Shown: positions 1-39,457, counted from the first letter of the stretch. The stretch: 64,000 bases of DNA from an uncultured Verrucomicrobiae bacterium (GCA_963714695.1 CAVQPQ010000001.1:7880-71879), one strand, 5' to 3'. The notes: generated by a model from the letters alone, not told the origin. Translations and numbers: made by a program.

Positions 1-723
1 CAATGGCAAGCAGTTTACAGCTATGCGACGAACAACGGCTACAGCTTTGTAAATGCTGGTTCTGGCGAGGCGGCGAATTATCCAGTGCAGACGGTGAACT
101 GGTATGACGTGGTGAAGTGGAGCAATGCGCGGTCGCAGCGGGCGGGTTTGACGCCAGTGTATTACACGGATGCGGGGATGACGCAGATTTATACGAACGG
201 TGAAACAGATGCAATTTATCCAAATTGGGTGGCCACCGGCTATCGGCTGCCGACGGAAGCGGAGTGGGAGAAAGCGGCGCGGGGTGGATTGAGCGGGCAA
301 CGGTTTCCGTGGGGCAATACGATATCCGAAAGTCAGGCCAACTATTACGGAAACACCAACTACTTTAGCTACGATTTGGGACCCAACTACTTCAACACCA
401 ACTTCGTAACCGGATTTTATCCCTACACGAGTCCGGTGGGCTATTTTGCGCCGAACGGATATGGGCTATACGACATGGCGGGAAATGTGTATGAGTGGTG
501 TTGGGACTGGTATGCAGCTCCGCCGTATACAGCGGGCAGTGCGTATTTGGGAGGGACCAATCCGACGGGAGCGGGGCCAGGATCGGGCTTCCGTGTGTTG
601 CGCGGCGGCTCTTGGTTCAACGACTACTACAGCGCCTACTATGCGCGGTGCGCCTTTCGCGGCGACAACTTCCCGGACAACGTCAACTACATCACTGGGT
701 TTCGCTGTGTAAGGGGGCTTTAA
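1..723 (+). CDS. FGE-sulfatase (SUMF1/formylglycine-generating enzyme fold) domain protein, 5' partial
   Basis: Frame 1 is open from base 1, so the start lies upstream of the window. Motifs RLPTEAEWEKAARGG, GNVYEWCWDWY, RVLRGGSW and GFRCV are typical of the FGE-sulfatase domain. Confidence 0.8.
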   Translation, partial: QWQAVYSYATNNGYSFVNAGSGEAANYPVQTVNWYDVVKWSNARSQRAGLTPVYYTDAGMTQIYTNGETDAIYPNWVATGYRLPTEAEWEKAARGGLSGQRFPWGNTISESQANYYGNTNYFSYDLGPNYFNTNFVTGFYPYTSPVGYFAPNGYGLYDMAGNVYEWCWDWYAAPPYTAGSAYLGGTNPTGAGPGSGFRVLRGGSWFNDYYSAYYARCAFRGDNFPDNVNYITGFRCVRGL

Positions 724-757
724 TTTTTGCTCTTTTACCCTTTAACCCTTTTTCACT

Positions 758-2194
758 GCTGACTCACAGGGATGAGGGTTGAGGTGTAAAAAAGGTTGGC
801 TTGCGGGTTTGGGCCTTGCCACAAGGTAAGGCATGAAAAATCAAACACGACACAAGCCAACCGCCAGCAAATTCTCGCTGTTGCGCCAACTTTGCAACTT
901 CATTCCGCCGCATCTGGTGCCGCGACTGGCACGCGAGACCGGCGTGGATGATCAAGCCCGCACTTTCAGTCCGTGGAGTCACGTCGTCAGTCTGCTTTAT
1001 GCCCAACTCACCCACAGCCTCGGTCTCAATAACGTCTGCGACGCCCTGCGGCTGCACTCCGGGTCGTTGTCGGCACTGCGCGGGGCCACGCCGCCGCCCA
1101 AAAACACGCTGTCGCACGCCAACCGCCGACGCGATCCGAAAATGGCCGAGCAACTGTTCTGGGCGGTGCTGGAACATTTGCAAACTTTGCAGCCCGCTTT
1201 CGGCGGCAACCGTCGCCCGAAGTTCGCCTTCCGCTTCAAGCGCCTCATCCATGTCGTGGACTCCACCACCATCCAACTGATGGCCCGCTCGCTGGACTGG
1301 GCCAAGCACCGCCGCCGCAAGGCTGCGGCCAAGTGTCATGTCCGCCTCGACCTGCAAACCTTTCTGCCCCGCTGCGCCATCGTGGCCACCGCCGGTGAGC
1401 ACGACAACCGGCGGGCACGCGAGCTTTGCGCCAATGTTCAAGCGGGTGAAATCGTCATCTTCGACAAGGCTTACCTCGATTTTGCCCATCTCGCCGACTT
1501 GTCCCAGCGCGGCGTCTTTTGGGTCACCCGCGCCAAGGACAATTTGCAATGCCGGGTCGTGCGCAAGTTTCAGGACGGCACGGAGGGTAACATTCTGCGG
1601 GATGACCTGATCGTCCTGACCAATCCGGCGGTGCAAGCCGTTTATCCGGTCGAACTGCGCCGCGTCACCGCCCTCGTCGAAGTGGACGGGCAATGGCGGG
1701 AAATGGTCTTTCTGACCAACAACCTGGAGTGGAGCGCCCAGACCATCGCCAACCTCTATCGCTGCCGCTGGAGCATCGAGGTCTTTTTCAAGGAACTCAA
1801 ACAGACCCTGCAACTGGCCGATTTCCTCGGCCACAACGCCAACGCCGTCAAATGGCAAGTCTGGACGGCACTCCTGGCCTATGTGCTCCTGCGTTTCTGC
1901 GCCCACCTGGGCCAGTGGAGCCACAGCTTTACCCGGCTCTTTGCACTGATCCGCTCGGCCCTCTGGCAAAAACTGGAACTGCGCAGCCTCTTGATATGCT
2001 ATGGGACAGCCGATGGCGGAGGGCGCTTTCTGGGCACGCCGCAACAAGCCTATCTGGCGGGATCCTGTGGGACAGCCAGCGTCCTGGCCAAACCAACGCC
2101 CGAAATTCTTAAACCGATTTTTCATTTTCCATCTCGATCCTCAAAGAAATCCGCCTCAAATTGTCGCGGAATCAATCTCTATTGGCCGACATTG
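758..2194 (+). mobile_element. IS4-family insertion sequence (ends provisional)
   Basis: Single DDE transposase ORF. An identical 13-bp direct repeat ACCCTTTTTCACT sits at 745-757 and 2195-2207, bracketing 1437 bp. That size and duplication length fit IS4-type elements. I could not identify convincing terminal inverted repeats by eye. Confidence 0.5.
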
Positions 2195-2245
2195 ACCCTT
2201 TTTCACTCACACTCGACGATAACTGTTCTTGACGTGGCCAGGTGA
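833..2245 (+). CDS. IS4-family DDE transposase
   Basis: 470-aa ORF. It has the N-terminal DUF4372-like segment (FSPWSHVVSLLYAQL), HVVDSTTI (first D), IVIFDKAYLDF (second D) and YRCRWSIEVFFKELKQ (the Y-x2-R-x3-E-x6-K signature of IS4). The ORF runs 43 bp into the convergent pseudogene, so the stop codon may lie outside the element. Confidence 0.85.
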   Translation: MKNQTRHKPTASKFSLLRQLCNFIPPHLVPRLARETGVDDQARTFSPWSHVVSLLYAQLTHSLGLNNVCDALRLHSGSLSALRGATPPPKNTLSHANRRRDPKMAEQLFWAVLEHLQTLQPAFGGNRRPKFAFRFKRLIHVVDSTTIQLMARSLDWAKHRRRKAAAKCHVRLDLQTFLPRCAIVATAGEHDNRRARELCANVQAGEIVIFDKAYLDFAHLADLSQRGVFWVTRAKDNLQCRVVRKFQDGTEGNILRDDLIVLTNPAVQAVYPVELRRVTALVEVDGQWREMVFLTNNLEWSAQTIANLYRCRWSIEVFFKELKQTLQLADFLGHNANAVKWQVWTALLAYVLLRFCAHLGQWSHSFTRLFALIRSALWQKLELRSLLICYGTADGGGRFLGTPQQAYLAGSCGTASVLAKPTPEILKPIFHFPSRSSKKSASNCRGINLYWPTLTLFHSHSTITVLDVAR

Positions 2246-2809
2246 TTCGAGTGCCGCTCGCGCTTACTTTTCCAGTATTTGGAAATCTCTTTGGTGGCCT
2301 TGTGCAGCCAGTCTTGGTCAGCCACGAGACGAATTATTTCAACGGCCGCGAACCACTTGGGCGCATTAGGAGCGGGATCGCCCAGCGGCGTCAGCTTGCC
2401 CACGGACATCAAAACCTGAATGTCATCTGCGCCTTTTCGATAGCTCAAGGCTAATTGTCTCATACCACCAAGCTGTTTTTTTAGATTGAGTTCAAGCTCT
2501 TCCTGTTCGCCATCGTCAAAGAGGATTTGATCCTTGGTATGACTTACTTCAAATCCCTCCAAAATAAGTTCGCCAAACAAACGTTGGTTGACCAGGTCGT
2601 TCGAGCCACCCTCCTGTTCACCAAATATTGTTTCCGGTCTGTAAGAGTCCGGCCAACCGGTGATGACTCTGTTCTGATTGAATAATTGAAAAGCCGGCAT
2701 CCCGGCGGCTGCCCTTTTCTAGCACACCAGCCCATCCGGAAACAAGTTTCCGGCCAACCTTGAAACGGAAATTTACCTTCGCTGGCTTGCCACTTATAAG
2801 ATGGAGCAA
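2203..2809 (-). pseudogene. C-terminal remnant of a GHKL/HATPase_c_3-type ATP-binding protein, frameshifted and 5'-truncated
   Basis: ORF 2203-2700 (..FGELILEGFEVSHTKDQILFDD..). The upstream -1 frame ORF 2618-2809 (..KVNFRFKVGRKLVSGWAGVLEKGSRRDAGF) reads straight into FQLFNQNRVITGW if one base is restored near 2695-2705. No ATPase N-domain is present upstream. Confidence 0.5.
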
Positions 2810-3132
2810 GCTGGGCGGAGTGCAGCGGTGTGCCGTTCGGTCGCGCGGGACGTCTCTGGGGAAAGCCAGTCTTTCGGCTTACGGCGTCAGCCAGTTGGCT
2901 GAAAGTCTGGCGCGGGGGCGGGGGGGCCATTTCAGCGCGACGGAACGGCACACAAGCGGAATGCAGGCCAGATATGAGTGTGCCGGCATCGGCATCTGTC
3001 GCGTTAGCGAGCAGTGGGCGAGCGTTGACCGTGCAGTGACCAGTTTCTGAGCGGGCAGCCAAACAGGTGAAGATTCCGGTGAAACTCTGACCCCGAACCA
3101 CCATAAAACCCCTATAAATAAAGGGTTTTGAT

Positions 3133-6385: not shown

Positions 6386-6748
6386 TCACTCCCCGCGATA
6401 AACCGCCCGCGCCGTGCAGGTTTCGGCCACAACCACTTCGGTGAGCAGCGGCAATCTCGGTTTCAGCTTCTTCCAGATCCACACGGCGATTTCCTCGCTC
6501 GTCGGGTTCTCCAGGCCGGGAACCTGGTTCAGGTAATTGTGGTCAATCTTTTCCCAGACGGGCTTGAATGCCGCCGTGATGTCCGCGTAATCCATCAGCC
6601 AGCCGAGTTTCGCGTCGCATTCGCCCGCCACCACGACGTCCACCTTGAAGCTGTGTCCGTGCAATCGCCGGCACTTGTGCGTCTTGGGCAAACGCGGCAG
6701 CAAATGCGCCGCCTCAAATTGAAAAGTTTTTCGTAATTCCATTTTCAT
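6386..6748 (-). CDS. queD: 6-carboxy-5,6,7,8-tetrahydropterin synthase
   Basis: 120 aa. Motifs FEAAHLLP, CRRLHGHSFKV and the C-terminal ETCTA are typical of QueD/PTPS. Confidence 0.9.
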   Translation of the reverse strand: MKMELRKTFQFEAAHLLPRLPKTHKCRRLHGHSFKVDVVVAGECDAKLGWLMDYADITAAFKPVWEKIDHNYLNQVPGLENPTSEEIAVWIWKKLKPRLPLLTEVVVAETCTARAVYRGE

Positions 6749-6760
6749 AGTTTGTAAAAT

Positions 6761-6817
6761 GTGATTCGTGAAGCGTGAAAACGTGATTGTGCATCACGCA
6801 TCACGTTTCACGTTTCA
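6761..6817. repeat. Heptanucleotide array forming a hairpin between the luxC-like stop and the queD start
   Basis: Left arm is GTGATTC GTGAAGC GTGAAAA CGTGATT. The GTGC loop is followed by the right arm ATCACGC ATCACGT TTCACGT TTCA. The array overlaps the luxC-like stop codon at 6808-6810. Confidence 0.75.
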
Positions 6818-8268
6818 AAATCGGTCCATGTCACCAAATCGCCCAGCGCGGGCCGGCCATCGTGACGCCACGTTAGCGGCGGGTTTTGCATCCGGCCCAG
6901 CGGGCACACCCGCGTCACGCCCCAGCGCGCCAGTTGCTCCGCCAATTCGCGCGCTTTTCGTTCCGGCGCGGCGATGCCAACGGTCGAAACCTGGCCGCGC
7001 ATGCACTCGGCGTTTTGCAGCATCTCGTGCAAATCCTTCACGCCCTTCACATAAACAAACCGGTTCAGGCATGACAGTTGGAAACGCGGATCCGCTTCGT
7101 AAATCACCGTCCACGCCGTTGAATCCCGGCTGTGCCACATCAAAGTTTCCGCTCCCTCGGTGCGGGCGGCCGCGCGCACCTGGTAGAACGCCCGGCGCGA
7201 CGCGATGACCGCCGCATGTTCCGTTGCCAGCTCGCCGCGCGGCTCCGTTTGCTCGCGCCGCTCCAATTCATCCGCAAGCATTTCCGCGAATTGTTCCGGC
7301 GACACTTTGCCGCCAGACTGGACGTATATTACGTGCGGCGAAAGACAGCCCAACTGGTTCCACGCCACCACGTCATCCGCCGCGTGGGAAATGATCTGCC
7401 GGGCGCTCGAAACATGTAAAACCGCGCTGTCCACATAACCAAAACTCACGCGCTGGCCGTACCCAAGAAATCGGATTTTAACCGGCAAACGCGCGCGGAT
7501 GTCCGCCAATGTCTCGTCACTGCCCGTCGCCGTCACACAATCAGCCCCGGCAAACAACGCGGTTTCCAAATCAACTTTGCCACCGCGCCACTCGGCGATT
7601 TCCAGGCAGGCGCCCAGTTTGGGGTCGGCATCATAAAGCGAGTGGGCGAACAGCCGGGGCAAAAACGCCGCGCCGCTCGCGCATTTCACAAATTGCGCCG
7701 AACGGGTCAGCAGGCCGAGCACGATGCTCATCAACGCCGGATTCGGAACGTTGCCCGGCGCGATGTGGACGATAAATTCCGGGCCGCGCCAAAAATGACG
7801 TGGGACGTGTGACGTGGGACGTGGGGAAACTGCATCGCTTGTCACCTGACACCCGTCGCCTGTCACACTGATGGCATCGCCCAATTCCTGTTCCAACAAC
7901 GCCTGTAAATTTTCAGCTGTGAGTTGCCGGAAAAAATTGTCCAGGCCCTTTTCCAACGTGGCGCGGGAAAAAACAGGTCCCGGAGCGCCGGGCACCGTCC
8001 CGGCAACCTTCAACCCCTGGCTTTGGTTCAAGCCGAGGCGGTGCCCGGCGCTCCCCGTTTGCTCCAGGGTCAGCTTGCGGAACCGGTTTTCCGCCCGCAA
8101 CCAGTCCTCCGCCACGTCGCTCAGTGTTTTTATGAGCTGTTCCGTTGAACGGCCGGCAAGATAACGCTCGCGATTGCGCTTCAGCGTCTGGCACGCCTCC
8201 GTGATCATCGCCGGCGACAACGTCGCTTCCGGCGGCAGATCGGCGAGAAAATAATTGGGCAGGCTCAT
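6808..8268 (-). CDS. LuxC-like acyl-CoA/acyl-protein reductase
   Basis: Motif HIAPGNVPNPALMSIVLGLLTRSAQFVKCASG is typical of the LuxC family. Start chosen at the ATG at 8268, which forms an ATGA overlap with the luxE-like stop. Confidence 0.8.
   Translation of the reverse strand: MSLPNYFLADLPPEATLSPAMITEACQTLKRNRERYLAGRSTEQLIKTLSDVAEDWLRAENRFRKLTLEQTGSAGHRLGLNQSQGLKVAGTVPGAPGPVFSRATLEKGLDNFFRQLTAENLQALLEQELGDAISVTGDGCQVTSDAVSPRPTSHVPRHFWRGPEFIVHIAPGNVPNPALMSIVLGLLTRSAQFVKCASGAAFLPRLFAHSLYDADPKLGACLEIAEWRGGKVDLETALFAGADCVTATGSDETLADIRARLPVKIRFLGYGQRVSFGYVDSAVLHVSSARQIISHAADDVVAWNQLGCLSPHVIYVQSGGKVSPEQFAEMLADELERREQTEPRGELATEHAAVIASRRAFYQVRAAARTEGAETLMWHSRDSTAWTVIYEADPRFQLSCLNRFVYVKGVKDLHEMLQNAECMRGQVSTVGIAAPERKARELAEQLARWGVTRVCPLGRMQNPPLTWRHDGRPALGDLVTWTDFET
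7796..7868. repeat. Heptanucleotide arrays inside luxC-like ORF
   Basis: TGACGTG GGACGTG TGACGTG GGACGTG lies at 7796-7823. After 17 bp comes GTCACCT GACACCC GTCGCCT GTCACAC (7841-7868), which is partly complementary. Confidence 0.7.
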
Positions 8269-9539
8269 TGGATTGCGGAGTGCGGAATGTGGAGTGCGGA
8301 ATGAGCCATCAGCGAACATCCGCGCGGTTCGGCCAGGGTCGCGCGGCCAATTAATTCAAATCCGTTGCCGCGACGGATCCCCAAATCTTCCGTTTGAATG
8401 GCCATGACGGAAAACCCGTTCGCCAAATCGAACACGCGAATCAAACCGGTTTCGCCATCAGCCACCTCGCGCCCCGTCTCGGGCGAAACGATCTGGACAC
8501 GAGTCCAAGGGGGAAAATGAAAAAGACGGGTGACACATTCTGGGAGCGCCGGCGTCCCGCCGGCAAGTTCCTTTGTCGCGGTTGGAAGAATTCGCCGGCG
8601 GGGCGCCGGCGCTCCCAGGTCATACGCCTGCGAACTCAACTCGCTCATGCCGTATTCGCAGATGATGTGCGATGGCGGCACACCGAGTTTTTCGGTGATG
8701 AGTCCATGCAATTCAATTTTGGGCAGGGAACGGGATCGGCCTTTGTAACCGCCGGTTTCCATCACGCGTGACCCGGCGGGCAAATCGAAACGCAGATTTT
8801 TCTCCGCCAGAAAATCAAGCAAATGCACGAAGGAAAAGGCCGTGCCCAGAATCAATTGCGGATTGCGGATTGCGGATTGCGGATTGTTGCCCAGCGCCGC
8901 AATCGCACGGTCGAATTCCAGCGTCCACGCGCCGTCCGTTGCCAGTTTGCCGACGAACGCAGTTTCCGGCGCGCCCAGGTTTTGCCGCACGGTTTCAAAC
9001 ATGCGGACGAGTGACGAGTGTGGCGCCTGCGCTGGCGGCGGCGTCAAAATTATCAGTCCGCAATCCGCAATCCGCAATCCGCAATTCTGAAACACGTTTT
9101 CCAGGAACCAAGGCAGCAATGAAGCCTCATACAATTTCAACGACTCGAGCGAATGGAAGTGGCGGCTTGGACGTTGTTCCGTCGTACCGCTGGAATGGAA
9201 AACCGCGATGCGTTCCGCCGGCGTCAGACAGGTCAAATCCAGTTCCTTGAACGCCGATGTCGGCACGGCCGGAATGCGCGCCCAATGTTCGACAACTCCT
9301 GGCGCAAGGCCACGCGATTCGCAGATTTTCCGGTAGGCGGCGTTGGATTTAAATTGCAGCGCAAAAAGTTCGCACGCAAGCCGGTTAAAAACGTTATCGC
9401 AGGAGCCGACGCAAGGAGGCTTGTTTTTTGTTCTGCCAGTGGTAGCTGGAGAAAGACTCCTCACGTCGGCTCCTACATCGGAAAAGAAAATAATGGCCTC
9501 GCGCAAACGCGCGGCAAAGTTTGAAAGTTCGGTGATCAT
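8265..9539 (-). CDS. LuxE-like acyl-protein synthetase (adenylate-forming)
   Basis: Motifs FALQFKSNAAYRKICE, IPAVPTSAFK and VFHSSGTTEQRPSRHF. Start chosen at MITELSNF (9539). The ORF contains four repeat insertions (see findings). Confidence 0.8.
   Translation of the reverse strand: MITELSNFAARLREAIIFFSDVGADVRSLSPATTGRTKNKPPCVGSCDNVFNRLACELFALQFKSNAAYRKICESRGLAPGVVEHWARIPAVPTSAFKELDLTCLTPAERIAVFHSSGTTEQRPSRHFHSLESLKLYEASLLPWFLENVFQNCGLRIADCGLIILTPPPAQAPHSSLVRMFETVRQNLGAPETAFVGKLATDGAWTLEFDRAIAALGNNPQSAIRNPQLILGTAFSFVHLLDFLAEKNLRFDLPAGSRVMETGGYKGRSRSLPKIELHGLITEKLGVPPSHIICEYGMSELSSQAYDLGAPAPRRRILPTATKELAGGTPALPECVTRLFHFPPWTRVQIVSPETGREVADGETGLIRVFDLANGFSVMAIQTEDLGIRRGNGFELIGRATLAEPRGCSLMAHSALHIPHSAIQ
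8270..8304. repeat. Heptanucleotide array at the luxE-like 3' end
   Basis: GGATTGC GGAGTGC GGAATGT GGAGTGC GGAATGA. It encodes the C-terminal ..HSALHIPHSAIQ and starts directly beside the overlapping luxE-like stop and luxC-like start codons. Confidence 0.75.
8540..8618. repeat. Family A palindromic element (WERRRPAGE type), copy inside luxE-like ORF
   Basis: Arms are CTGGGAGCGCCGGCGTCCCGCCGGC and GCCGGCGGGGCGCCGGCGCTCCCAG. The ORF stays open and reads ..APAPRRRILPTATKELAGGTPALPE.. Confidence 0.85.
8853..8887. repeat. Heptanucleotide array (GGATTGC)n inside luxE-like ORF
   Basis: CAATTGC GGATTGC GGATTGC GGATTGC GGATTGT. Confidence 0.9.
9064..9098. repeat. Heptanucleotide array (CAATCCG)n inside luxE-like ORF, inverted partner of 8853-8887
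   Basis: CAGTCCG CAATCCG CAATCCG CAATCCG CAATTCT. It is the reverse complement of the 8853-8887 array, 176 bp away. Confidence 0.9.
9397..9477. repeat. Family C palindromic element inside luxE-like ORF (81 bp)
   Basis: Arms are GCAGGAGCCGACGCAAGGAGGC and GACTCCTCACGTCGGCTCCTACA. The element translates as ..VGADVRSLSPATTGRTKNKPPCVGS.. Confidence 0.8.
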
Positions 9540-9682
9540 GCGGTTTTTGTTTGCCGGCTGGTTTTCCGCCACAGCCGGATGGAATTGTAGCAAGGAATGA
9601 CCTTCCAGCAAGTGCGATTCCGTTTCATTCGAACGCTGCGCAGGATTGCCAATGGCGCCTGTGTCCGTCACACTGCTTTTCA

Positions 9683-22275: not shown

Positions 22276-24087
22276 ATGAACAATCCGAACACAGAAAATC
22301 CGCCGCCCGCCGCCCCGTCCGATTTTATCCGCGACATCGTGGAAAAACACGTCGCTGAGAAGAAATATCCGCGCATCCACACGCGTTTTCCGCCCGAACC
22401 GAACGGCTACCTGCACATCGGCCATGCCAAGAGCATCTGCCTGAACTTTGGCATCGCGCGCGAATTCGGCGGCATCTGCAACCTGCGCATGGACGACACC
22501 AACCCGGCCAAGGAAGACGTCGAATACGTGGATTCCATCATCGAAGATGTGAACTGGCTCATCAGCGCCTGGGCCGATAAAAATCTTGGCCTCAAGCCGA
22601 AAGGGAAAACGCCCGAAGCTGTCACGTCAAACGGCAAGCCGGATTTTTATCTGGGAGCAGTTACGGGAACATCCAACATCCAACATCCAACATCCAACAT
22701 CCAAGTCGAAGCGTTTTACGCCTCGGACTACTTCGACCAGATTTACGAATACGCCGTCGCGCTCATCAAGAAAGGCAAGGCCTACGTCTGCGACCTGACG
22801 CCGGACCAGACGGATGAATACCGCCGCAACGCCAAGGAAAGCCCGTTCCGCAACCGCAGCATCGAGGAAAGTCTCGACCTGTTTACGCGAATGAAGAACG
22901 GCGAGTTCCCCGATGGCACGCGCACGCTGCGCGCGAAGATTGACGTGACCGCGCCGAACATCTGGATGCGCGACCCGCTCATTTACCGCATCCGCCACGC
23001 CGAACATCATCACACCGGCGGCAAATGGTGCATTTATCCGATGTACGATTTCGCGCATTGCCTGAGCGATTATCTCGAAGGCATTACGCACAGCATTTGC
23101 ACGCTGGAATTCGAGGTGCATCGCCCGCTGTACGACTGGATATTGGAGAACCTGGATCTGCCGCGTCCCCTACCCCATCAATATGAATTCGCGCGTCTCA
23201 GCCTCACCTACACCATCATGAGCAAACGCAAGCTCATGCAGCTTGTGAACGAAAAACTCGTAACCGGCTGGGACGACCCGCGCATGCCCACCATCAGCGG
23301 CATCCGGCGGCGCGGCGTCACTGCGGAAGCCCTGCGCGCGTTTGCCTACAACATCGGCATCACCAAATACAACGGCCTCACCGACGTGGCCGTGCTGGAA
23401 TTCGCCATCCGCGAAGACCTGAACAAACGCGCCCTGCGCCGCCTCGCCGTGCTGCGCCCAATCAAGGTCATCATCACGAATTTTCCGGAAGGCAAAACCG
23501 AGGAATTGGATGCCGTCAACAACCCCGAGGATGAAAACGCGGGCAAACGGACAATTCCTTTCAGCCGCGAACTATTCATCGAGCAGGACGATTTCAAGGA
23601 AGTTGCCGTGCCGAAATATTTCCGGTTGAAACCCGGCGGCGAAGTCCGGCTGAAATACGCCTACATCATCAAATGCGACGAAGTGGTGAAGGACGCCGCC
23701 GGCAACATCACCGAGCTGCGCTGCACCGCCGATCTCGACAGCAAGAGTGGCGGAGCCACGGCGGCGCGCAAAGTTAAGGGAACAATTCATTGGGTAAGCG
23801 CCGCGCACGCCGTGGATGCCGAAGTACGCCTCTACGACCGCCTGTTCACCGAAGCCGAGCCGGAAAAAGATGGTCGCGATTTCAAGTCCGTGCTCAACCC
23901 GCACTCGCTCGAAGTGGTGACGGCCAAATGCGAGCCGAGCCTGAAAGACGTAAAACCGGAACTGCGCTATCAATTCGAGCGCCTCGCCTACTTCGCGTCG
24001 GACAAAGACACCACGCCCGGCAAGCTGGTTTTGAATCGGACGATAACGCTGAAAGACACTTGGGCGAAGGAAGCGCAGAAAGGTTAA
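22276..24087 (+). CDS. glnS: Glutamine--tRNA ligase
   Basis: Motifs [17 protein letters not shown] (HIGH) and VMSKRK-type TIMSKRKL. It is collinear with E. coli GlnRS as I recall it, apart from an insertion after DVNWL. Confidence 0.95.
22668..22705. repeat. Heptanucleotide array (ATCCAAC)n inside glnS ORF
   Basis: Four exact ATCCAAC units plus ATCCAAG. It translates as [12 protein letters not shown]. Confidence 0.9.
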
Positions 24088-32292: not shown

Positions 32293-35200
32293 TTACGGTG
32301 TGGCGGAACGGTAAAACTGGACCGGATGGCTGCCGGCATTCGTATCGGTGAATTGCCATGCGCCCGCGGGTCCGGCCACGTTGGTGCAGATGGGTTGCCA
32401 GATGACCGGCGGGGTCAGATTGGTGGCTGCGAAGACACGGCTGCCGATGTTCGGAGCGGTCAGCAAATTGAGCGTCACGCTGCCGTCCGGATTGAAAACG
32501 GACTTTGAAATGAGCGGCGCGGTGGCCACGCTCAACGTGACCAAGCTGCTGGTGAAGCTGCCGTAAGGACCGGTGACGATGACGGAATAATTACCGCTAT
32601 TGTTCATGGTGATATTGTTCAGGGTCAGCGTGGGATAGCTGGCAAACAGGCTCACTTTACAGATACGGTTGTTGAGTGTGTCTGCGATCAACAGATTGCC
32701 GGAGGCGTCCGTTTCCACGCCTCCAGTGAGATTAAAACTCGCATTGGTGATGGCGCCATTGCCCGCTACGGTGGTGATCACGCCGTTCGTGTCCACTTTA
32801 CGAATGCAGTTGTTGAGCCAATCCGCAATGAACAAATTGCCGAAGGGGTCCAATACGACGCCTGTCGGCAGATTTAGCATGGCATTGGTGGCCGCGCCAC
32901 CGTCACCGGAATAACCGCGTGTGCCGTTGCCTGCAACGGCGGTGATGATACCGTTGACATCCACTTTACGGATGCAGTTATTGCCTGTATCTGCAAAAAA
33001 CAGATTGCCGGAGATGTCAAACACGAGGTTTTCAGGATTATGCAGGATGGCATTGGTGGCCGCGCCACCGTTGCCGGAATAACCGCCTGTACCATTGCCC
33101 GCAACACTTGTAATAATGCCACTGCTGTCCACTTTGCGGATACAGTTGTTGAAATAGTCCCCAATGAACAGATTGCCGAAGGCATCCAAGGCCACACCGA
33201 AAGGACCGTGCAGTCCGGCATTAGTCGCCGGGCCACCATCACCGAAATAGCCGCCTGAACCATTGCCTGCCATAGTGGTGATCATGCCGTTGGTATTTAT
33301 TTTGCGGATGCGGTTGTTGGCGTAATCCCCAATGAACAGGTTCCCGTTGGCGTCCACGGTTACACCGTAGGGTGCGTTCAGACTGGCATTGGTGGCCGCG
33401 CCGCCGTCACCGGAAAAGCCGTTTATGCCGTTGCCTGCCACAGTGGTGATGATGCCATTGACGCTCAATTTGCGGATCCGATTATTGGATGCATCCGCGA
33501 TGAACAGGTTGCCGAAGGCATCCCAGGCCATACCCAAGGGGCTGTTCAGCATGGCATTGGTGGCCGGACCGTCGTCGCCGGAAAAGCCGGGACTGCCGTT
33601 GCCTGCCACGGTGGTCATGCCGTATGGCAGATTAGTGCCGTTCAACTGCCATTGATAGGTGAACGGGCCGGTATCGAAAATTTCTACATTGAATGTCGCC
33701 TTGCCGCCCATCATCACCAATTGATTGGCCGGCTCAACAGACACTAATTCGCCTCTCAAATGAGCCACACTGCTGGTCACACTGCCCCACATATTGGTGA
33801 TGATAACCGTATAATCACCCACGTCATTGGTGGCGGTGGCGTTCAGGAGCAGGTTGGTTGTCGTCGAACCAGAAAGGTTGCCATCATCGGCCAGATTCGC
33901 CCCGTTTTTCTGCCATTGAAAATGAAAAGGCACCGTGCCAATGACGGAAACACCAAATGAGGCCGGCGTCCCATATCGGACTGCAAGATTTTGAGGTTGA
34001 GACACAATGATCGGCGGCGACGAGGCCACAGTCAACGTGACAATACTGCTGGTAAAGCTGCCGTAGGGAGTGGTGATGATTACGGAATAATTGCCGGCGT
34101 CGCGCGCGGTGACGTTGTTCAGGGCAAGGGTGGGATAACTGGCAAACAATGCCACTTTCCGGACGCGGTTGTTGCTGGTGTCCGCAATAAACAGGTTGCC
34201 GAAAGTGTCCACCGCCACACCCAATGGTTGATACAGGCTGGTATTGGTGGCTGCGCCACCGTCACTGGAATAACCGGAACTGCCATTGCCCGCCACGGTC
34301 GTAATCATGCCATCAATACTTACTTTGCGGATGCGGCTGTTGATGTCGTCCGCGATGAACAGGTTGCCGGAAGCATCCAAGGCCACACCGTATGGAAAAT
34401 ACAGCTTGGCATTGGTGGCCGCGCCACCGTCGCCGGAATAGCCGTTTATGCCGTTGCCCGCCACAGTGGTGATGATGCCGTTGATGTCCACTTTCCGAAC
34501 GCGAAAGTTTAACGAGTCTGAAATGAACAAATTGCCGAAGGCATCCAAGGCCACACCAAAGGGATGATTCAGGCTGGCATTGGTGGCTGTCCCACCGTCG
34601 CCGGAATAACTGCCTGTGCCATTACCCGCTACTGTGTTAATCATGCCATTGGTGTCCATTTTGCGAACCCGGTTATTTAAGAAATCCGCAATGTACAGGT
34701 TGCCTAAATTGTCAAATGTTATGCCGTAGGGGTGGTTCAGGCTGGCATTGGTGGCGGGGCCGCCATCGCCGGAATAACTATTTGTACCGTTGCCGGCCAC
34801 AGTCGTAATGATGCCATTGGTGTCCACTTTGCGAATCCTATTGTTGTTATAGTCTGCAATGAAAAGATTGCCGGAAGGATCCGTAACGGTGCTTCCGGAG
34901 GAAGACAGGCTGGCATTGGTTGCAGGGCCGCCATCGCCGGAATAACTGTTTGTCCCGTTGCCCGCCACGGTGGTAATCACGCCGTTGACACTTACTTTGC
35001 GAATGCGATTGCTTGAGCCTGTAATGAACAAATTGCCGGAGATGTCCAAGAACACACTGAAGGGATGCACGGAGGCATTGGTAGCGGGACCGCCGTCGCC
35101 GGAAAAAGCATTTGTGCCGTTGCCGGCCACGGTGGTAATGATGCCATCCGGCAAATTGGTGCCATTCAACTGCCATTGAAAGGTGAACGGGCCGGCGCCG

Positions 35201-36870
35201 GCAACAGCTACAGTAAATGTCGCCGTGCCTCCCGCCATCACGGTTTGATCGGCCGGCTCGGCCGGCATCATGACCACCAAGCTGGCCGCGCTGCTGGTCA
35301 CACTGCCCCACACATTGGTGATGATGACCGTGTAACCGCCCGCGTCATTGGTGGCGGCGGCGGTCACAAACAGGTTGTTCGTCGCCGAACCGGAAAGGTT
35401 GCCGTCATCAGTCAGATTCACCCCGTTTTTTTGCCATTGAAAATGAAACGGCGTGGTGCCGACAACGGAGACGCCAAACGAGGCCGGCGCTCCACCCAGC
35501 ACGGCAAGGCTTTGAGGTTGGGACACAATGATGGGCGGTGATAAAACCGTCAACGTGACATTGCTGCTGGTCACGCTGCCGTCGGGACCGGTGATGACGA
35601 TGGAATAATTTCCTTCGTTGTATGGACCCACATTGTTCAGGGTGAGCGTGGGGTTACTGGCAAACAACACCACTTCCCGGACGCGTTCGTTGCCCAAATC
35701 CGCCAGGAACAGGTTGCCGGTGCTGTCCAACGCCACGCCGGAAGGCAGATTCAGGGTGGCATTGGTGGCCATTCCGCCGTCGCCGGAATAACCCCAGTTG
35801 TCATTGCCCGCCACGGTCGTGATGATGCCGAAAGAGTCCACTTTGCGGATGCGATCGTTCGATGAGTCCGCAAAAAACAAATTGCCGAAGGCATCCACAG
35901 CCACGCCATAAGGCGCGTCCAGGCAGGCGTTGGTGGCCAGTCCGCCATCGCCGGAATAATCCAGGCTGCCGTTGCCGGCCACAGTCGTAATGATGCCATT
36001 GGTGTCCACTTTGCGAATGCGATTATTGTCCATGTCCGCAATGAACAGATTGCCGGTGGCATCCACAGCCACACCATAAGGCGCATTCAGGCTGGCGTTG
36101 GTGGCCGGGCCACCATCGCCGGAATAGCTTCCGTAAACAGCGGGGCCTTTGCCGGCCACCGTGGTGATGATGCCGTTGGTGTCCACTTTGCGGATGCGAT
36201 TGTTGTCCGTATCCGCAATAAACAGATTGCCGGAGCCGTCCACGTCCACGGCTTCAACGTAAGCCAGGCTGGCGCTGGTGGCCGGGCCACCGTCGCCGGA
36301 ATAGCCGGGACTGCCATTGCCGGCCACGGTCGTGATGATGCCGTTGGTGTCCACCTTGCGAACGCGGTTGTTGTTCCAATCCGCGATGAAGAGGTTGCCT
36401 GAGGCGTCCAGCGCCACCCCGGCAGGACGGATGGTGGCATTGGTGGCAGCGACGCCATCGCCGGAGTAACCGGTGCTGCCGTTGCCCGCGACCGTCGTGA
36501 TGATCCCGTTGGTGGTTACCTTGCGGATGCGATTGTTGACAAAGTCGGCAATGAACAGGTTGCCGGCGGCGTCAAAAGCCGCACCCTCAGGATAATACAG
36601 GCTGGCATTGGTGGCCGGTCCGCCGTCGCCGGAATAACCGCCACTGCCATTGCCGGCCACGGTGGTGATAATGCCATTGGGCAGATTGGTGCCATTGAAT
36701 TGCCATTGGCAGGTAAACGGGCCGTCACCGGAAACCGCCACGCTCAACTTCGTCATGCTTCCGGCCATCACTGTCTGGTTGGTCGGCTGGGTGGTGATGG
36801 TTTGTGCGGACAAAATCGTCGCCGCAAAGGCCGGTGCCGCTGCCGCCCAAAAAAACATTTTCAGTTTCAT
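32293..36870 (-). CDS. Giant secreted NHL-repeat protein with interspersed Ig-like domains
   Basis: 1525 aa with a signal peptide. More than 25 units of IITTVAGNGxxGYSGDGGPATNAxLxxPxGVAxDxxGNLFIADxxNNRIRKV are grouped in four propeller blocks. Each block is followed by an Ig-like segment (FxWQxNGxNL). Confidence 0.9.
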   Translation of the reverse strand: MKLKMFFWAAAAPAFAATILSAQTITTQPTNQTVMAGSMTKLSVAVSGDGPFTCQWQFNGTNLPNGIITTVAGNGSGGYSGDGGPATNASLYYPEGAAFDAAGNLFIADFVNNRIRKVTTNGIITTVAGNGSTGYSGDGVAATNATIRPAGVALDASGNLFIADWNNNRVRKVDTNGIITTVAGNGSPGYSGDGGPATSASLAYVEAVDVDGSGNLFIADTDNNRIRKVDTNGIITTVAGKGPAVYGSYSGDGGPATNASLNAPYGVAVDATGNLFIADMDNNRIRKVDTNGIITTVAGNGSLDYSGDGGLATNACLDAPYGVAVDAFGNLFFADSSNDRIRKVDSFGIITTVAGNDNWGYSGDGGMATNATLNLPSGVALDSTGNLFLADLGNERVREVVLFASNPTLTLNNVGPYNEGNYSIVITGPDGSVTSSNVTLTVLSPPIIVSQPQSLAVLGGAPASFGVSVVGTTPFHFQWQKNGVNLTDDGNLSGSATNNLFVTAAATNDAGGYTVIITNVWGSVTSSAASLVVMMPAEPADQTVMAGGTATFTVAVAGAGPFTFQWQLNGTNLPDGIITTVAGNGTNAFSGDGGPATNASVHPFSVFLDISGNLFITGSSNRIRKVSVNGVITTVAGNGTNSYSGDGGPATNASLSSSGSTVTDPSGNLFIADYNNNRIRKVDTNGIITTVAGNGTNSYSGDGGPATNASLNHPYGITFDNLGNLYIADFLNNRVRKMDTNGMINTVAGNGTGSYSGDGGTATNASLNHPFGVALDAFGNLFISDSLNFRVRKVDINGIITTVAGNGINGYSGDGGAATNAKLYFPYGVALDASGNLFIADDINSRIRKVSIDGMITTVAGNGSSGYSSDGGAATNTSLYQPLGVAVDTFGNLFIADTSNNRVRKVALFASYPTLALNNVTARDAGNYSVIITTPYGSFTSSIVTLTVASSPPIIVSQPQNLAVRYGTPASFGVSVIGTVPFHFQWQKNGANLADDGNLSGSTTTNLLLNATATNDVGDYTVIITNMWGSVTSSVAHLRGELVSVEPANQLVMMGGKATFNVEIFDTGPFTYQWQLNGTNLPYGMTTVAGNGSPGFSGDDGPATNAMLNSPLGMAWDAFGNLFIADASNNRIRKLSVNGIITTVAGNGINGFSGDGGAATNASLNAPYGVTVDANGNLFIGDYANNRIRKINTNGMITTMAGNGSGGYFGDGGPATNAGLHGPFGVALDAFGNLFIGDYFNNCIRKVDSSGIITSVAGNGTGGYSGNGGAATNAILHNPENLVFDISGNLFFADTGNNCIRKVDVNGIITAVAGNGTRGYSGDGGAATNAMLNLPTGVVLDPFGNLFIADWLNNCIRKVDTNGVITTVAGNGAITNASFNLTGGVETDASGNLLIADTLNNRICKVSLFASYPTLTLNNITMNNSGNYSVIVTGPYGSFTSSLVTLSVATAPLISKSVFNPDGSVTLNLLTAPNIGSRVFAATNLTPPVIWQPICTNVAGPAGAWQFTDTNAGSHPVQFYRSATP

Positions 36871-39421: not shown

Positions 39422-39449
39422 CTCTCAACCTTCAACCCTCAACCCTCAA
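39422..39449. repeat. Heptanucleotide array (CTCAACC)n, intergenic
   Basis: CTCAACC TTCAACC CTCAACC CTCAACT. Its complement GAGGGTTGA also occurs at about 775-787 and 41097-41106. Confidence 0.8.
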
Positions 39450-39457
39450 CTTTTTCC

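Follow-up and report, generated by a model that had tools for sequence, protein, structure and literature searches.

Tandem repeats of seven-nucleotide units have been noted in bacteria since about 1990 and are still unexplained. The analysis presented here concerns five such heptamer arrays in a luxC/luxE-like operon, carried on a stretch of 64,000 nucleotides (CAVQPQ010000001.1:7880-71879; hereafter the window, meaning this whole stretch) from an uncultured member of the Limisphaerales, whose metagenome-assembled genome (MAG), obtained from soil, comprises 5.16 Mb in 9 contigs. The arrays of the operon belong to a lineage-specific family of modules of ~28–33 nt (4 to 4.7 units) that is dispersed over the genome, and represent a coding-tolerant Verrucomicrobial variant of the known, unexplained bacterial heptamer repeats, comparable to the short tandemly repeated repetitive (STRR) sequences of cyanobacteria.

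According to PMC4692102, the cyanobacterial STRR share with these arrays the 7-nt unit, the presence of several families, hundreds of short arrays per genome, some of them inverted, and an unexplained function. However, the cyanobacterial arrays are reported from intergenic regions and sometimes reach considerable length (26 units in the Nostoc pec operon), whereas the arrays described here belong to Verrucomicrobiota (Limisphaerales), lie within coding sequences (CDS) and in frame in about half of the cases, and show a sharp ceiling at ~33 nt. The likeness to STRR proposed in an earlier note on this stretch holds in so far as heptanucleotide arrays occur genome-wide and lineage-wide and are short, but the predominantly intergenic location typical of Nostoc and Xanthomonas is absent, with 205 of 426 arrays in the CDS core. 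The GGGAATC repeats of Xanthomonas (PMC4692102) also have a four-unit mode, form inverted pairs, and occupy the same positions in related species with variation. Nevertheless, they consist of a single G-rich, quadruplex-prone unit in intergenic regions, some reaching 26 units (PMC4692102), while ~137 units, mostly not G-rich and many of them intragenic, are found here.

The TAACTGA repeats of Beggiatoaceae, cyanobacteria, and Bacteroidetes (PMC4679880) are heptamers as well, in 2–6 copies near starts and stops, with a few in open reading frames (ORFs) at the periphery of the protein. They are built on one dominant unit, whose forward orientation has stops in all frames (PMC4679880), and insertions into the protein core, which are rare for TAACTGA (PMC4679880), are common in the present case. 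On the other hand, the Rickettsia palindromic elements (RPEs; PMC10969869), the classical example of in-frame, translated repeats, resemble the elements described here as small palindromes held in frame in unrelated metabolic genes, where they add an extra peptide at permissive places. Yet RPEs are ~150 bp long and have a conserved family consensus and peptide (PMC10969869), whereas the present elements span ~32 nt (~75 nt as hairpins), are defined by their 7-nt periodicity, and have no consensus.

Dispersed hairpins at intercistronic junctions are likewise a trait of the repetitive extragenic palindromic (REP) sequences, the bacterial interspersed mosaic elements (BIMEs), and the system formed by REP doublet hairpins (REPINs) and REP-associated tyrosine transposases (RAYTs), and the effect on mRNA ends is plausibly the same. 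REPs protect the upstream mRNA. Unlike the REPIN-RAYT system, however, no array-flanked RAYT-type gene is found here, the arms are tandem heptamers of many sequences, and many copies are intragenic. Contingency loci based on simple sequence repeats (SSRs), such as the Haemophilus influenzae hmw promoters and Escherichia coli K1 neuO, also hold tandem 7-nt units in or next to genes. Their tracts, of roughly 9–39 heptanucleotide units, are long, polymorphic in populations, and associated with surface or variable genes, whereas those described here are short, invariant in the available data, and located in metabolic genes. The present case joins the behaviour of heptamer SSRs with an in-frame behaviour like that of RPEs, in a phylum (Verrucomicrobia) for which no description of heptamer arrays of this kind was found in the literature searched.

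Heptamer arrays of the operon and their genome-wide family

Period-7 repeats, confirmed by Tandem Repeats Finder (TRF) and by direct reading, are present at all five sites that the earlier note had reported within 2.3 kb. Their limits required some correction, as the fifth array lies at 9057-9085 rather than at 9064-9098 (a shift of ~7–13 nt), and the one reported at 7796-7868 consists of two facing arrays rather than one:

6761..6819, minus strand: intercistronic hairpin of inverted heptamer arrays (GTGAAAC / TCACGTT family), from TRF and folding
7797..7868, minus strand: (GACGTGG)x4.1 array at 7797-7825 facing a degenerate inverted array at 7840-7868, from TRF
8270..8303, minus strand: degenerate AATCCGC-type array (GGAGTGC/GGAATGT), LuxE site 4, from TRF
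8855..8886, minus strand: perfect (ATTGCGG)x4.6 on the plus strand, that is, (AATCCGC) in the mRNA, LuxE site 2, from TRF
9057..9085, minus strand: perfect (TCCGCAA)x4.1 on the plus strand, that is, (GCGGATT) in the mRNA, LuxE site 1, from TRF

The first of these is, as had been proposed, a hairpin over the luxC stop codon. Its right arm comprises 6791-6805 (GCATCAC x2.1) and 6801-6817 (TCACGTT x2.4), its left arm (6764-6787) is an inverted copy, and it folds with -26.0 kcal/mol on the mRNA strand and -28.3 kcal/mol on the other (z = -4.6 and -5.5). The hairpin covers the luxC stop (TGA 6810-6808, minus strand) and occupies the 59-nt spacer between this codon and the start (6748) of the following gene, which encodes a 6-pyruvoyl-tetrahydropterin synthase (PTPS)-like protein. 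The facing arrays at 7797-7868 were also considered as a hairpin, but this was rejected, the segment 7790-7875 folding no better than its shuffles (z = -0.2 and -0.9).

At the scale of the genome, 109 exact runs with three or more copies have period 7, compared to 22 with period 6 and a single one with period 8, and TRF detects 426 non-redundant period-7 arrays, compared to none in a shuffled contig; a chance origin is excluded. The mean density of the genome predicts 0.19 arrays per 2.3 kb, with a probability of 5e-5 for four or more. The arrays are clustered, with ~15 segments of 2.3 kb in the genome carrying at least four, and consequently the luxCE cluster is not unique.

The modules have a sharp upper limit of length. 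The lengths of perfect runs are flat from 21 to 33 nt and then collapse (12 runs at 32 nt, 9 at 33 nt, 1 at 34 nt, with a maximum of 37 nt), the ceiling of 33 nt corresponding to ~4.7 units. In the AATCCGC family, 10 of 25 loci hold exactly (AATCCGC)4 plus a partial unit between unrelated flanks, and the modules in general lack conserved flanks. The vocabulary comprises 137 canonical units over 430 TRF rows, the commonest being AACCCTC (24 arrays), AATCCGC (21), and AACATCC (21), and the array at LuxE site 2 is one of 14 perfect matches in the genome to a 25-nt (GCGGATT)3.5 pattern, most of which are of one fixed length. An inverted partner (Watson–Crick, within 250 nt) exists for 135 of the 426 arrays, compared to 2 in the control, mostly across loops of 10–35 nt, and the genome holds 76 array-hairpin loci with a mean of ~-44 kcal/mol. 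The module is thus found either solitary or as an inverted pair that forms a hairpin with arms of ~30 nt.

A census of this kind, including the positional bias relative to genes, had been proposed in the earlier note, and it gave 426 arrays versus none after shuffling, with an enrichment of ~4-fold at gene ends. Positions were assigned by our own crude ORF calls, which label 85% of the genome as coding and miss luxE. By these calls, the CDS core holds 205 arrays (312 expected) and the intergenic regions 134 (55 expected), a stop codon is no more than 15 nt away for 18.8% of the arrays compared to 4.6% of random positions, and intergenic and gene-end positions are enriched 2.4- to 4-fold. A frame open for at least 150 nt on both sides is seen for 245 of the 426 arrays.

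Within the genus, 22 of 41 genomes, counting the present one, carry perfect (GCGGATT)3.5 arrays, while the single further congener sampled (n=1) has none. Outside the genus, such arrays were detected in 6 of 79 genomes taken from the order's other families and in 4 of 300 taken from the remainder of the phylum. (GCGGATT)n tracts of much greater length occur in a few relatives, so the ceiling of 33 nt is not absolute across the order. According to estimates from runs of overlapping pattern matches, these tracts reach ~11.6 units or more in G342 (C272:47739-47819 and C102:4-84) and ~7.6 units or more in G014 (C168:11548-11600).

Other repeats are also present in the window. Two of them are heptamer arrays, (AACATCC)x5.3 at 22668-22704 and (CTCAACC)x3.9 at 39424-39450. 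Arrays with a period of 168 nt (56 aa) and 72–75% identity extend over 32790-36680 on the minus strand, and presumably represent a large repeat-domain protein unrelated to the heptamers.

Repeat elements within luxE and luxC and at the luxC–PTPS junction

The operon comprises three genes, and luxE holds two palindromic elements in addition to its arrays:

8265..9539, minus strand: luxE-like gene, acyl-protein synthetase (Pfam LuxE, 1.8e-15; PDB 7xc6_E, 5e-9)
6808..8268, minus strand: luxC-like gene, acyl-CoA reductase (Pfam LuxC, 5.5e-65; PDB 7xc6_A, 2.5e-10)
6386..6748, minus strand: PTPS/QueD-like gene, 3' of the hairpin (Pfam PTPS, 3.5e-35)
9402..9474, minus strand: palindromic REP-like element (GGAGCCGACGTGAGGAG...CTCCTTGCGTCGGCTCC), LuxE site 0, near the N-terminus, in frame
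8540..8618, minus strand: GC-rich palindromic REP-like element (CTGGGAGCGCCGGCG...CGCCGGCGCTCCCAG), LuxE site 3, from folding

Comparison with orthologs, at 12 loci first and then at 92, identifies five in-frame repeat elements in luxE (three heptamer arrays and two unrelated palindromic REP-like elements) and one in luxC. The luxE ORF is open through all of the sites in 92 of 92 orthologs, with a minimum of 358 aa, and for this reason the elements appear to be translated or, at the least, to be under a constraint that preserves the frame. Other species either lack any insert in the variable loops of luxE and luxC or have arrays of different units, or unrelated palindromic elements, at these places.

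Site 1, which reads QNCGLRIADCGL in this species, is a segment of 45–48 nt across most of the genus. The most widespread unit at this place is GATTTAC, others being AATTCAA, ATTCAGC, GATTGCC, GATTGGC, and, in this species, GCGGATT; some species hold larger palindromic elements instead, and deeper lineages a non-repetitive segment of equal length. Site 2, which reads NNPQSAIRNPQL, holds AATCCGC, GTCACTC-type, or AGACGCC-type arrays in orthologs, or no array. Site 4 encodes the C-terminal tail of LuxE (HSALHIPHSAIQ), ending at the TGA at 8267-8265. Most orthologs end at this site with RGCSLM[TA]A* (9 nt past RGCSL), whereas seven close relatives have 42 nt, that is, an insertion of 33 nt, which in L027 is a perfect (CAATCCG)x4. 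In luxC, the facing arrays at 7797-7868 are read in frame as ...SVTGDGCQVTSDAVSPRPTSHVPRHF..., at a place where orthologs conserve RRLDxxVA...SNRAAMAV. The replacement of that segment by a peptide encoded by an array hairpin (VTGDGCQVTGKAVSPRHSPLATCHFWR in the orthologs) is patchily distributed among species, and this species is one of those that show it.

The two palindromic elements are likewise in frame. The one at site 0 folds with -47.4 kcal/mol on the sense strand and has an arm motif with 52–83 copies in the genome, depending on the pattern; translations of the 'PPHVGGY / SRRLL' type, akin to this element, occur in other loops of orthologs. The site-3 palindrome, read in frame as LGAPAPRRRILPTATKELAGGTPALP, folds with -57.1 kcal/mol (z = -8.1) and is a member of a dispersed, mostly intergenic family, for which 125 arm motifs and 18 paired copies were counted in the genome. 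The locus was found in 20 DNA runs, and in Logan contigs, which were compared for eight soil and peat metagenomes, the words of this palindrome reach a depth of 334 versus ~13. The site-3 loop ranges from 24 to 264 nt among orthologs, as a short plain segment (8–10 aa), a single 33-nt array, an array hairpin of 75–78 nt, or larger elements, and is in frame in 86 of 86 readable loci, a constraint which argues that the coding copies are not excised from the transcript in the way of intervening sequences (IVSs) of rRNA. Right after this palindrome (8520-8545), a conspecific LuxE of 97% identity (P0004) reads QNVSPVI where PECVTRL is found here, which, judging from the proteins alone, looks like a compensated pair of 1-nt indels.

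Regarding the protein, the inserted segments fall in stretches with a predicted local distance difference test (pLDDT) score below 50 in an AlphaFold model of LuxE that is poor overall (mean pLDDT 60). An alignment to the LuxC-LuxE complex 7xc6, too sparse for exact placement, is consistent with extra residues at these places. Both luxC and luxE look intact and functional, and the finding looks benign for this operon. The luxE gene is present in 40 of 40 relatives searched. Metatranscriptomes contain at most 6% of the sampled luxC words.

The likely start of luxE is the ATG at 9539 (MITELSNF...), M49 of the long ORF being near-invariant across homologs, and its stop (TGA 8267-8265) overlaps the likely start of luxC (ATG 8268). 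The ~40 nt that precede the luxE start (9540-9585, minus strand) are conserved in many orthologs, unlike the sequence farther upstream, and read '(S)AVAENQPANKNRM' in frame; this stretch could be a 5' leader, a ribosome-binding region, or an unannotated N-terminal extension.

At the other end of luxC, many orthologs have luxC and the PTPS gene overlapping as GAATTATGAAAATGG, with stop and start sharing ATGA, while other species hold junction hairpins of at least four unit families: GAAACGT in this species and four others, GGAGTGA in five species, CAGTAGT in eight, and GGCAGAT in two. Judged from this comparison, the junction hairpin is an insertion into an ancestrally overlapping stop and start. 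Between filled and empty junctions, an ambiguity of at most 2 nt (AA) is seen, with no distinct terminal inverted repeat (TIR) beyond the arms. Each species has at its junction a family that is represented by several copies in its own genome, as observed for this genome and for its relative G004: GTGAAAC-type sequences have 12 matches in this genome and none in G004, whereas GTCAGTA-type sequences have 8 matches in G004, one of them inside the locus bearing the G004 luxC–PTPS junction, and none in this genome.

The two perfect arrays of luxE deserve a separate description. Those reported at 8853 and 9064 are confirmed as reverse complements, although the spacer between them is ~170 nt and not 176. 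In the mRNA (a segment of 251 nt), sites 1 and 2 form a stem of 34 bp with one bulge, at -122.5 kcal/mol and z = -5.4. The long-range stem suggested in the earlier note therefore folds in this species, but the two sites are complementary in only 1 of the 21 orthologs readable at both, namely in this species. When another unit occupies site 1, site 2 does not follow; GCGGATT occurs at site 1 only together with AATCCGC at site 2 (10 of 10 proteins, from about four lineages), while AATCCGC at site 2 is also found with GATTTAC at site 1. The two arms of L005 share a variant unit, in mirrored form. The stem is probably a by-product of the copying of one array from the other, a consequence rather than a purpose.

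Proposed mode of spread of the modules

The arrays are probably best regarded as tolerated selfish or mutational DNA, dispersed members of a family rather than switches. The blooms of particular units in particular genomes, the fixed length, and the absence of shared flanks point to copying between loci. According to the mechanism proposed, modules would be copied within the genome from existing arrays, either by template switching or by microhomology-primed ectopic conversion, and selection would retain an insertion only if its net length is a multiple of three, it is free of stop codons, and it lies in a permissive loop or at the end of a gene. Site 1 of luxE would have been rewritten as the reverse complement of site 2, 170 nt away, by an intramolecular template switch. 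The intercistronic hairpin, if active at all, would work as a REP-like barrier or processing site at the 3' end of the mRNA, also uncoupling the translation of luxC and PTPS.

A stronger version of this proposal, in which the ~32-nt modules and their hairpin pairs constitute a distinct self-propagating element of the Limisphaerales, with a dedicated or at any rate specific copying process (strand switching between arrays that leads to templated insertion or conversion) that writes cassettes of fixed length and overwrites older ones, as seems to have happened at site 1 of luxE, is put forward only tentatively and is rather doubtful. If true, these cassettes would bring the current unit vocabulary of the genome to permissive sites, some of them inside working genes, and the weak folding of coding hairpins on the sense strand (see below) would record an ongoing selection against the mRNA structure that they impose.

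Several observations weigh against the interpretation of the arrays as copied modules. First of all, the copying machinery was not identified: none of 21 genes for Y1 transposases (RAYT-type; PF01797 matches) has an array within 1.2 kb, while about 10% of random positions have one within 600 nt, and the link between heptamer arrays and RAYT/IS200 was consequently rejected. This proximity test covered the heptamer arrays. Second, neither terminal inverted repeats nor clear target-site duplications were seen around the modules. Third, site 1 has the same length of 48 nt in array-bearing and array-less orthologs and partly homogenised arrays exist at this site (L003, L010), so concerted evolution in place fits as well as replacement. 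The first unit at the luxC end of the junction hairpin (GAAACGTGA) is continuous with native-looking sequence, and this continuity of GAAACGTGA could reflect local seeding. Furthermore, gains, losses, and recombination events are not countable, because the LuxE tree is poorly resolved within the genus (37 of 88 forks open), and the genome-wide positions rest on the crude ORF caller that missed luxE. With regard to the stability of the arrays, Logan contigs drop rare variants and break in the two perfect arrays, so that low-frequency unit variants could escape.

The Y1-transposase matches themselves (IS200/IS605-type, e.g., C3:88898, C6:111248, C6:448176, and C8:34681) include four of equal score and four more within ~3 bits, all of them open frames of 171 aa, which suggests a recently active family of insertion sequences.

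Some of these points would suit ordinary microsatellites, in which each array arises at its own site by replication slippage favouring 7-nt units, with no copying between loci. A polymerase-footprint idea for such 7-nt slippage is attributed to Mrazek et al. 2007. Heptamer SSRs are in excess in many bacteria, and the Xanthomonas arrays, mostly of four units, vary among species at the same intergenic sites (PMC4692102). In the present lineage, the site-1 array of L003 (GATTTAC GATTTAC CATTTTC GATTTTC) and that of L010 resemble concerted evolution in place, and the length of site 1 is kept with or without a visible array. However, the lengths expected from slippage are geometric, and those observed are flat up to a cut-off at 33 nt; as many as 24 loci have one unit in common, at equal length and between unrelated flanks; congeners differ in vocabulary, and the luxC–PTPS junction holds the genome's own abundant family. 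Within genes, single-unit steps would shift the frame, so homogenisation would have to pass through dead alleles, whereas whole insertions of 33 nt are observed. Independent slippage is therefore considered an unlikely origin for the family as a whole.

RNA structure, unit number, and significance

The hairpins formed by the arrays could also be selected RNA or DNA signals, coding copies included, acting as RNase III or processing stems, mRNA stabilisers, translational operators, or, in the case of luxE, as a functional stem. Arrays are enriched ~4-fold within 15 nt of stops and starts, the inverted partners (135 of 426 arrays) and the 76 hairpin loci at a mean of ~-44 kcal/mol are abundant, 12 nt separate the junction hairpin from the PTPS start that follows it, and the variant unit of L005 is kept in both arms. 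Similar roles have been suggested elsewhere, as the TAACTGA heptamers of Beggiatoaceae have been proposed to be translational operators (PMC4679880) and the stems of the IVS of Coxiella 23S rRNA, which carry heptamer repeats, are RNase III substrates (PMC4990558).

Nevertheless, orthologous sites are not conserved in sequence, as units, element types, and even presence vary; the long-range stem is missing in 20 of 21 orthologs, and many lineages dispense with the junction hairpin. The folding of the coding copies argues in the same direction. Among 29 coding hairpins in well-scoring CDS (e.g., C1:157357-157447 and C5:362552-362626), some of which are copies of one element and make the effective sample smaller, 24 are less stable on the mRNA than on the antisense strand (24 vs 5; Wilcoxon p = 0.0025), whereas hairpins between co-directional genes show no strand bias (18 vs 20). 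This asymmetry looks like selection against strong mRNA structure in translated regions. A mutation bias was set aside as its cause, since the usual C-to-T bias of the non-transcribed or leading strand would predict the opposite sign and the intergenic hairpins are unbiased. A general signalling role for the arrays, extended to the coding copies, is thus quite improbable.

The earlier note had also presented the arrays as potential contingency sites, at which heptamer tracts would gain or lose units often and switch the frame of luxC and luxE. Indeed, the 7-nt unit is not a multiple of three, so that a change of one unit shifts the frame, and one unit added at 8270-8300 would join the frames of luxE and luxC. 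Across the genome, there are 16 arrays among the 426 at which two long ORFs would be fused by a change of one or two units, compared to 3.8 expected at random positions, and some relatives hold longer tracts, estimated at ≥7.6 units in G014 and ≥~11.6 units in G342. As a search for OFF alleles, however, the genome-wide test (±1–2 units) was discarded as uninformative: most of the 16 'fusable' matches, luxE/luxC among them, lie at gene junctions, which are enriched in arrays in any case. An extra 7-nt unit in the array at 8265-8303 would give a LuxE-LuxC fusion ORF, and no such allele was seen.

Unit number was compared in related strains, and proved invariant. The segments encoded by the arrays are identical in five full-length conspecific proteins (97–100% identity, from separate assemblies), and contigs from the eight metagenomes that span 6761-6817, 7797-7868, or 8270-8303, the arrays spanned differing from run to run, contain no indels. 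At 77% identity (P0005), the unit counts are equal and only point substitutions are found. No OFF (frameshifted) luxE allele exists among the 92 orthologs. In the two perfect arrays, unit number can be checked through the conspecific proteins only, because the k=31 graph branches there: 31-mers of the (GGATTGC)n arrays (8800-8890 and 9052-9135; runs X1-X5) have depths of 150–3100 compared to ~13 in the flanks, with 900–3000 at the two perfect arrays, and a depth so far above ~13 shows that the array word is common to many loci and organisms in soil and peat. Two shorter conspecific proteins end exactly in the GC-rich palindrome 8540-8618, which points to assembly breaks, and one public MAG (L019) has Ns within the site-2 array.

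With unit number invariant in the conspecific proteins and in the spanning contigs, phase variation is not supported, and unit number is stable in the assemblies and contigs examined. Switching is highly improbable for arrays of only 4–4.7 units under a ceiling of 33 nt, far shorter than the known heptanucleotide switches, which leave the luxE frame unbroken in all 92 orthologs and lie in the middle and at the 3' end of genes of a metabolic operon (LuxC/LuxE homologues) rather than in surface or restriction genes.

From a practical point of view, arrays regarded as tolerated, dispersed modules inflate protein lengths and break short-read assemblies, and in annotation they can pass for inserted domains or for switches of phase variation. 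For the biology of the lineage, fixed-size cassettes, genome-specific vocabularies, and orthologous sites that can be compared over many uncultured species, all within functional enzymes, make this group informative. The mode of spread of heptamer repeats (slippage or templated copying), the limit of ~33 nt, and the way in which proteins accommodate these insertions become testable questions.

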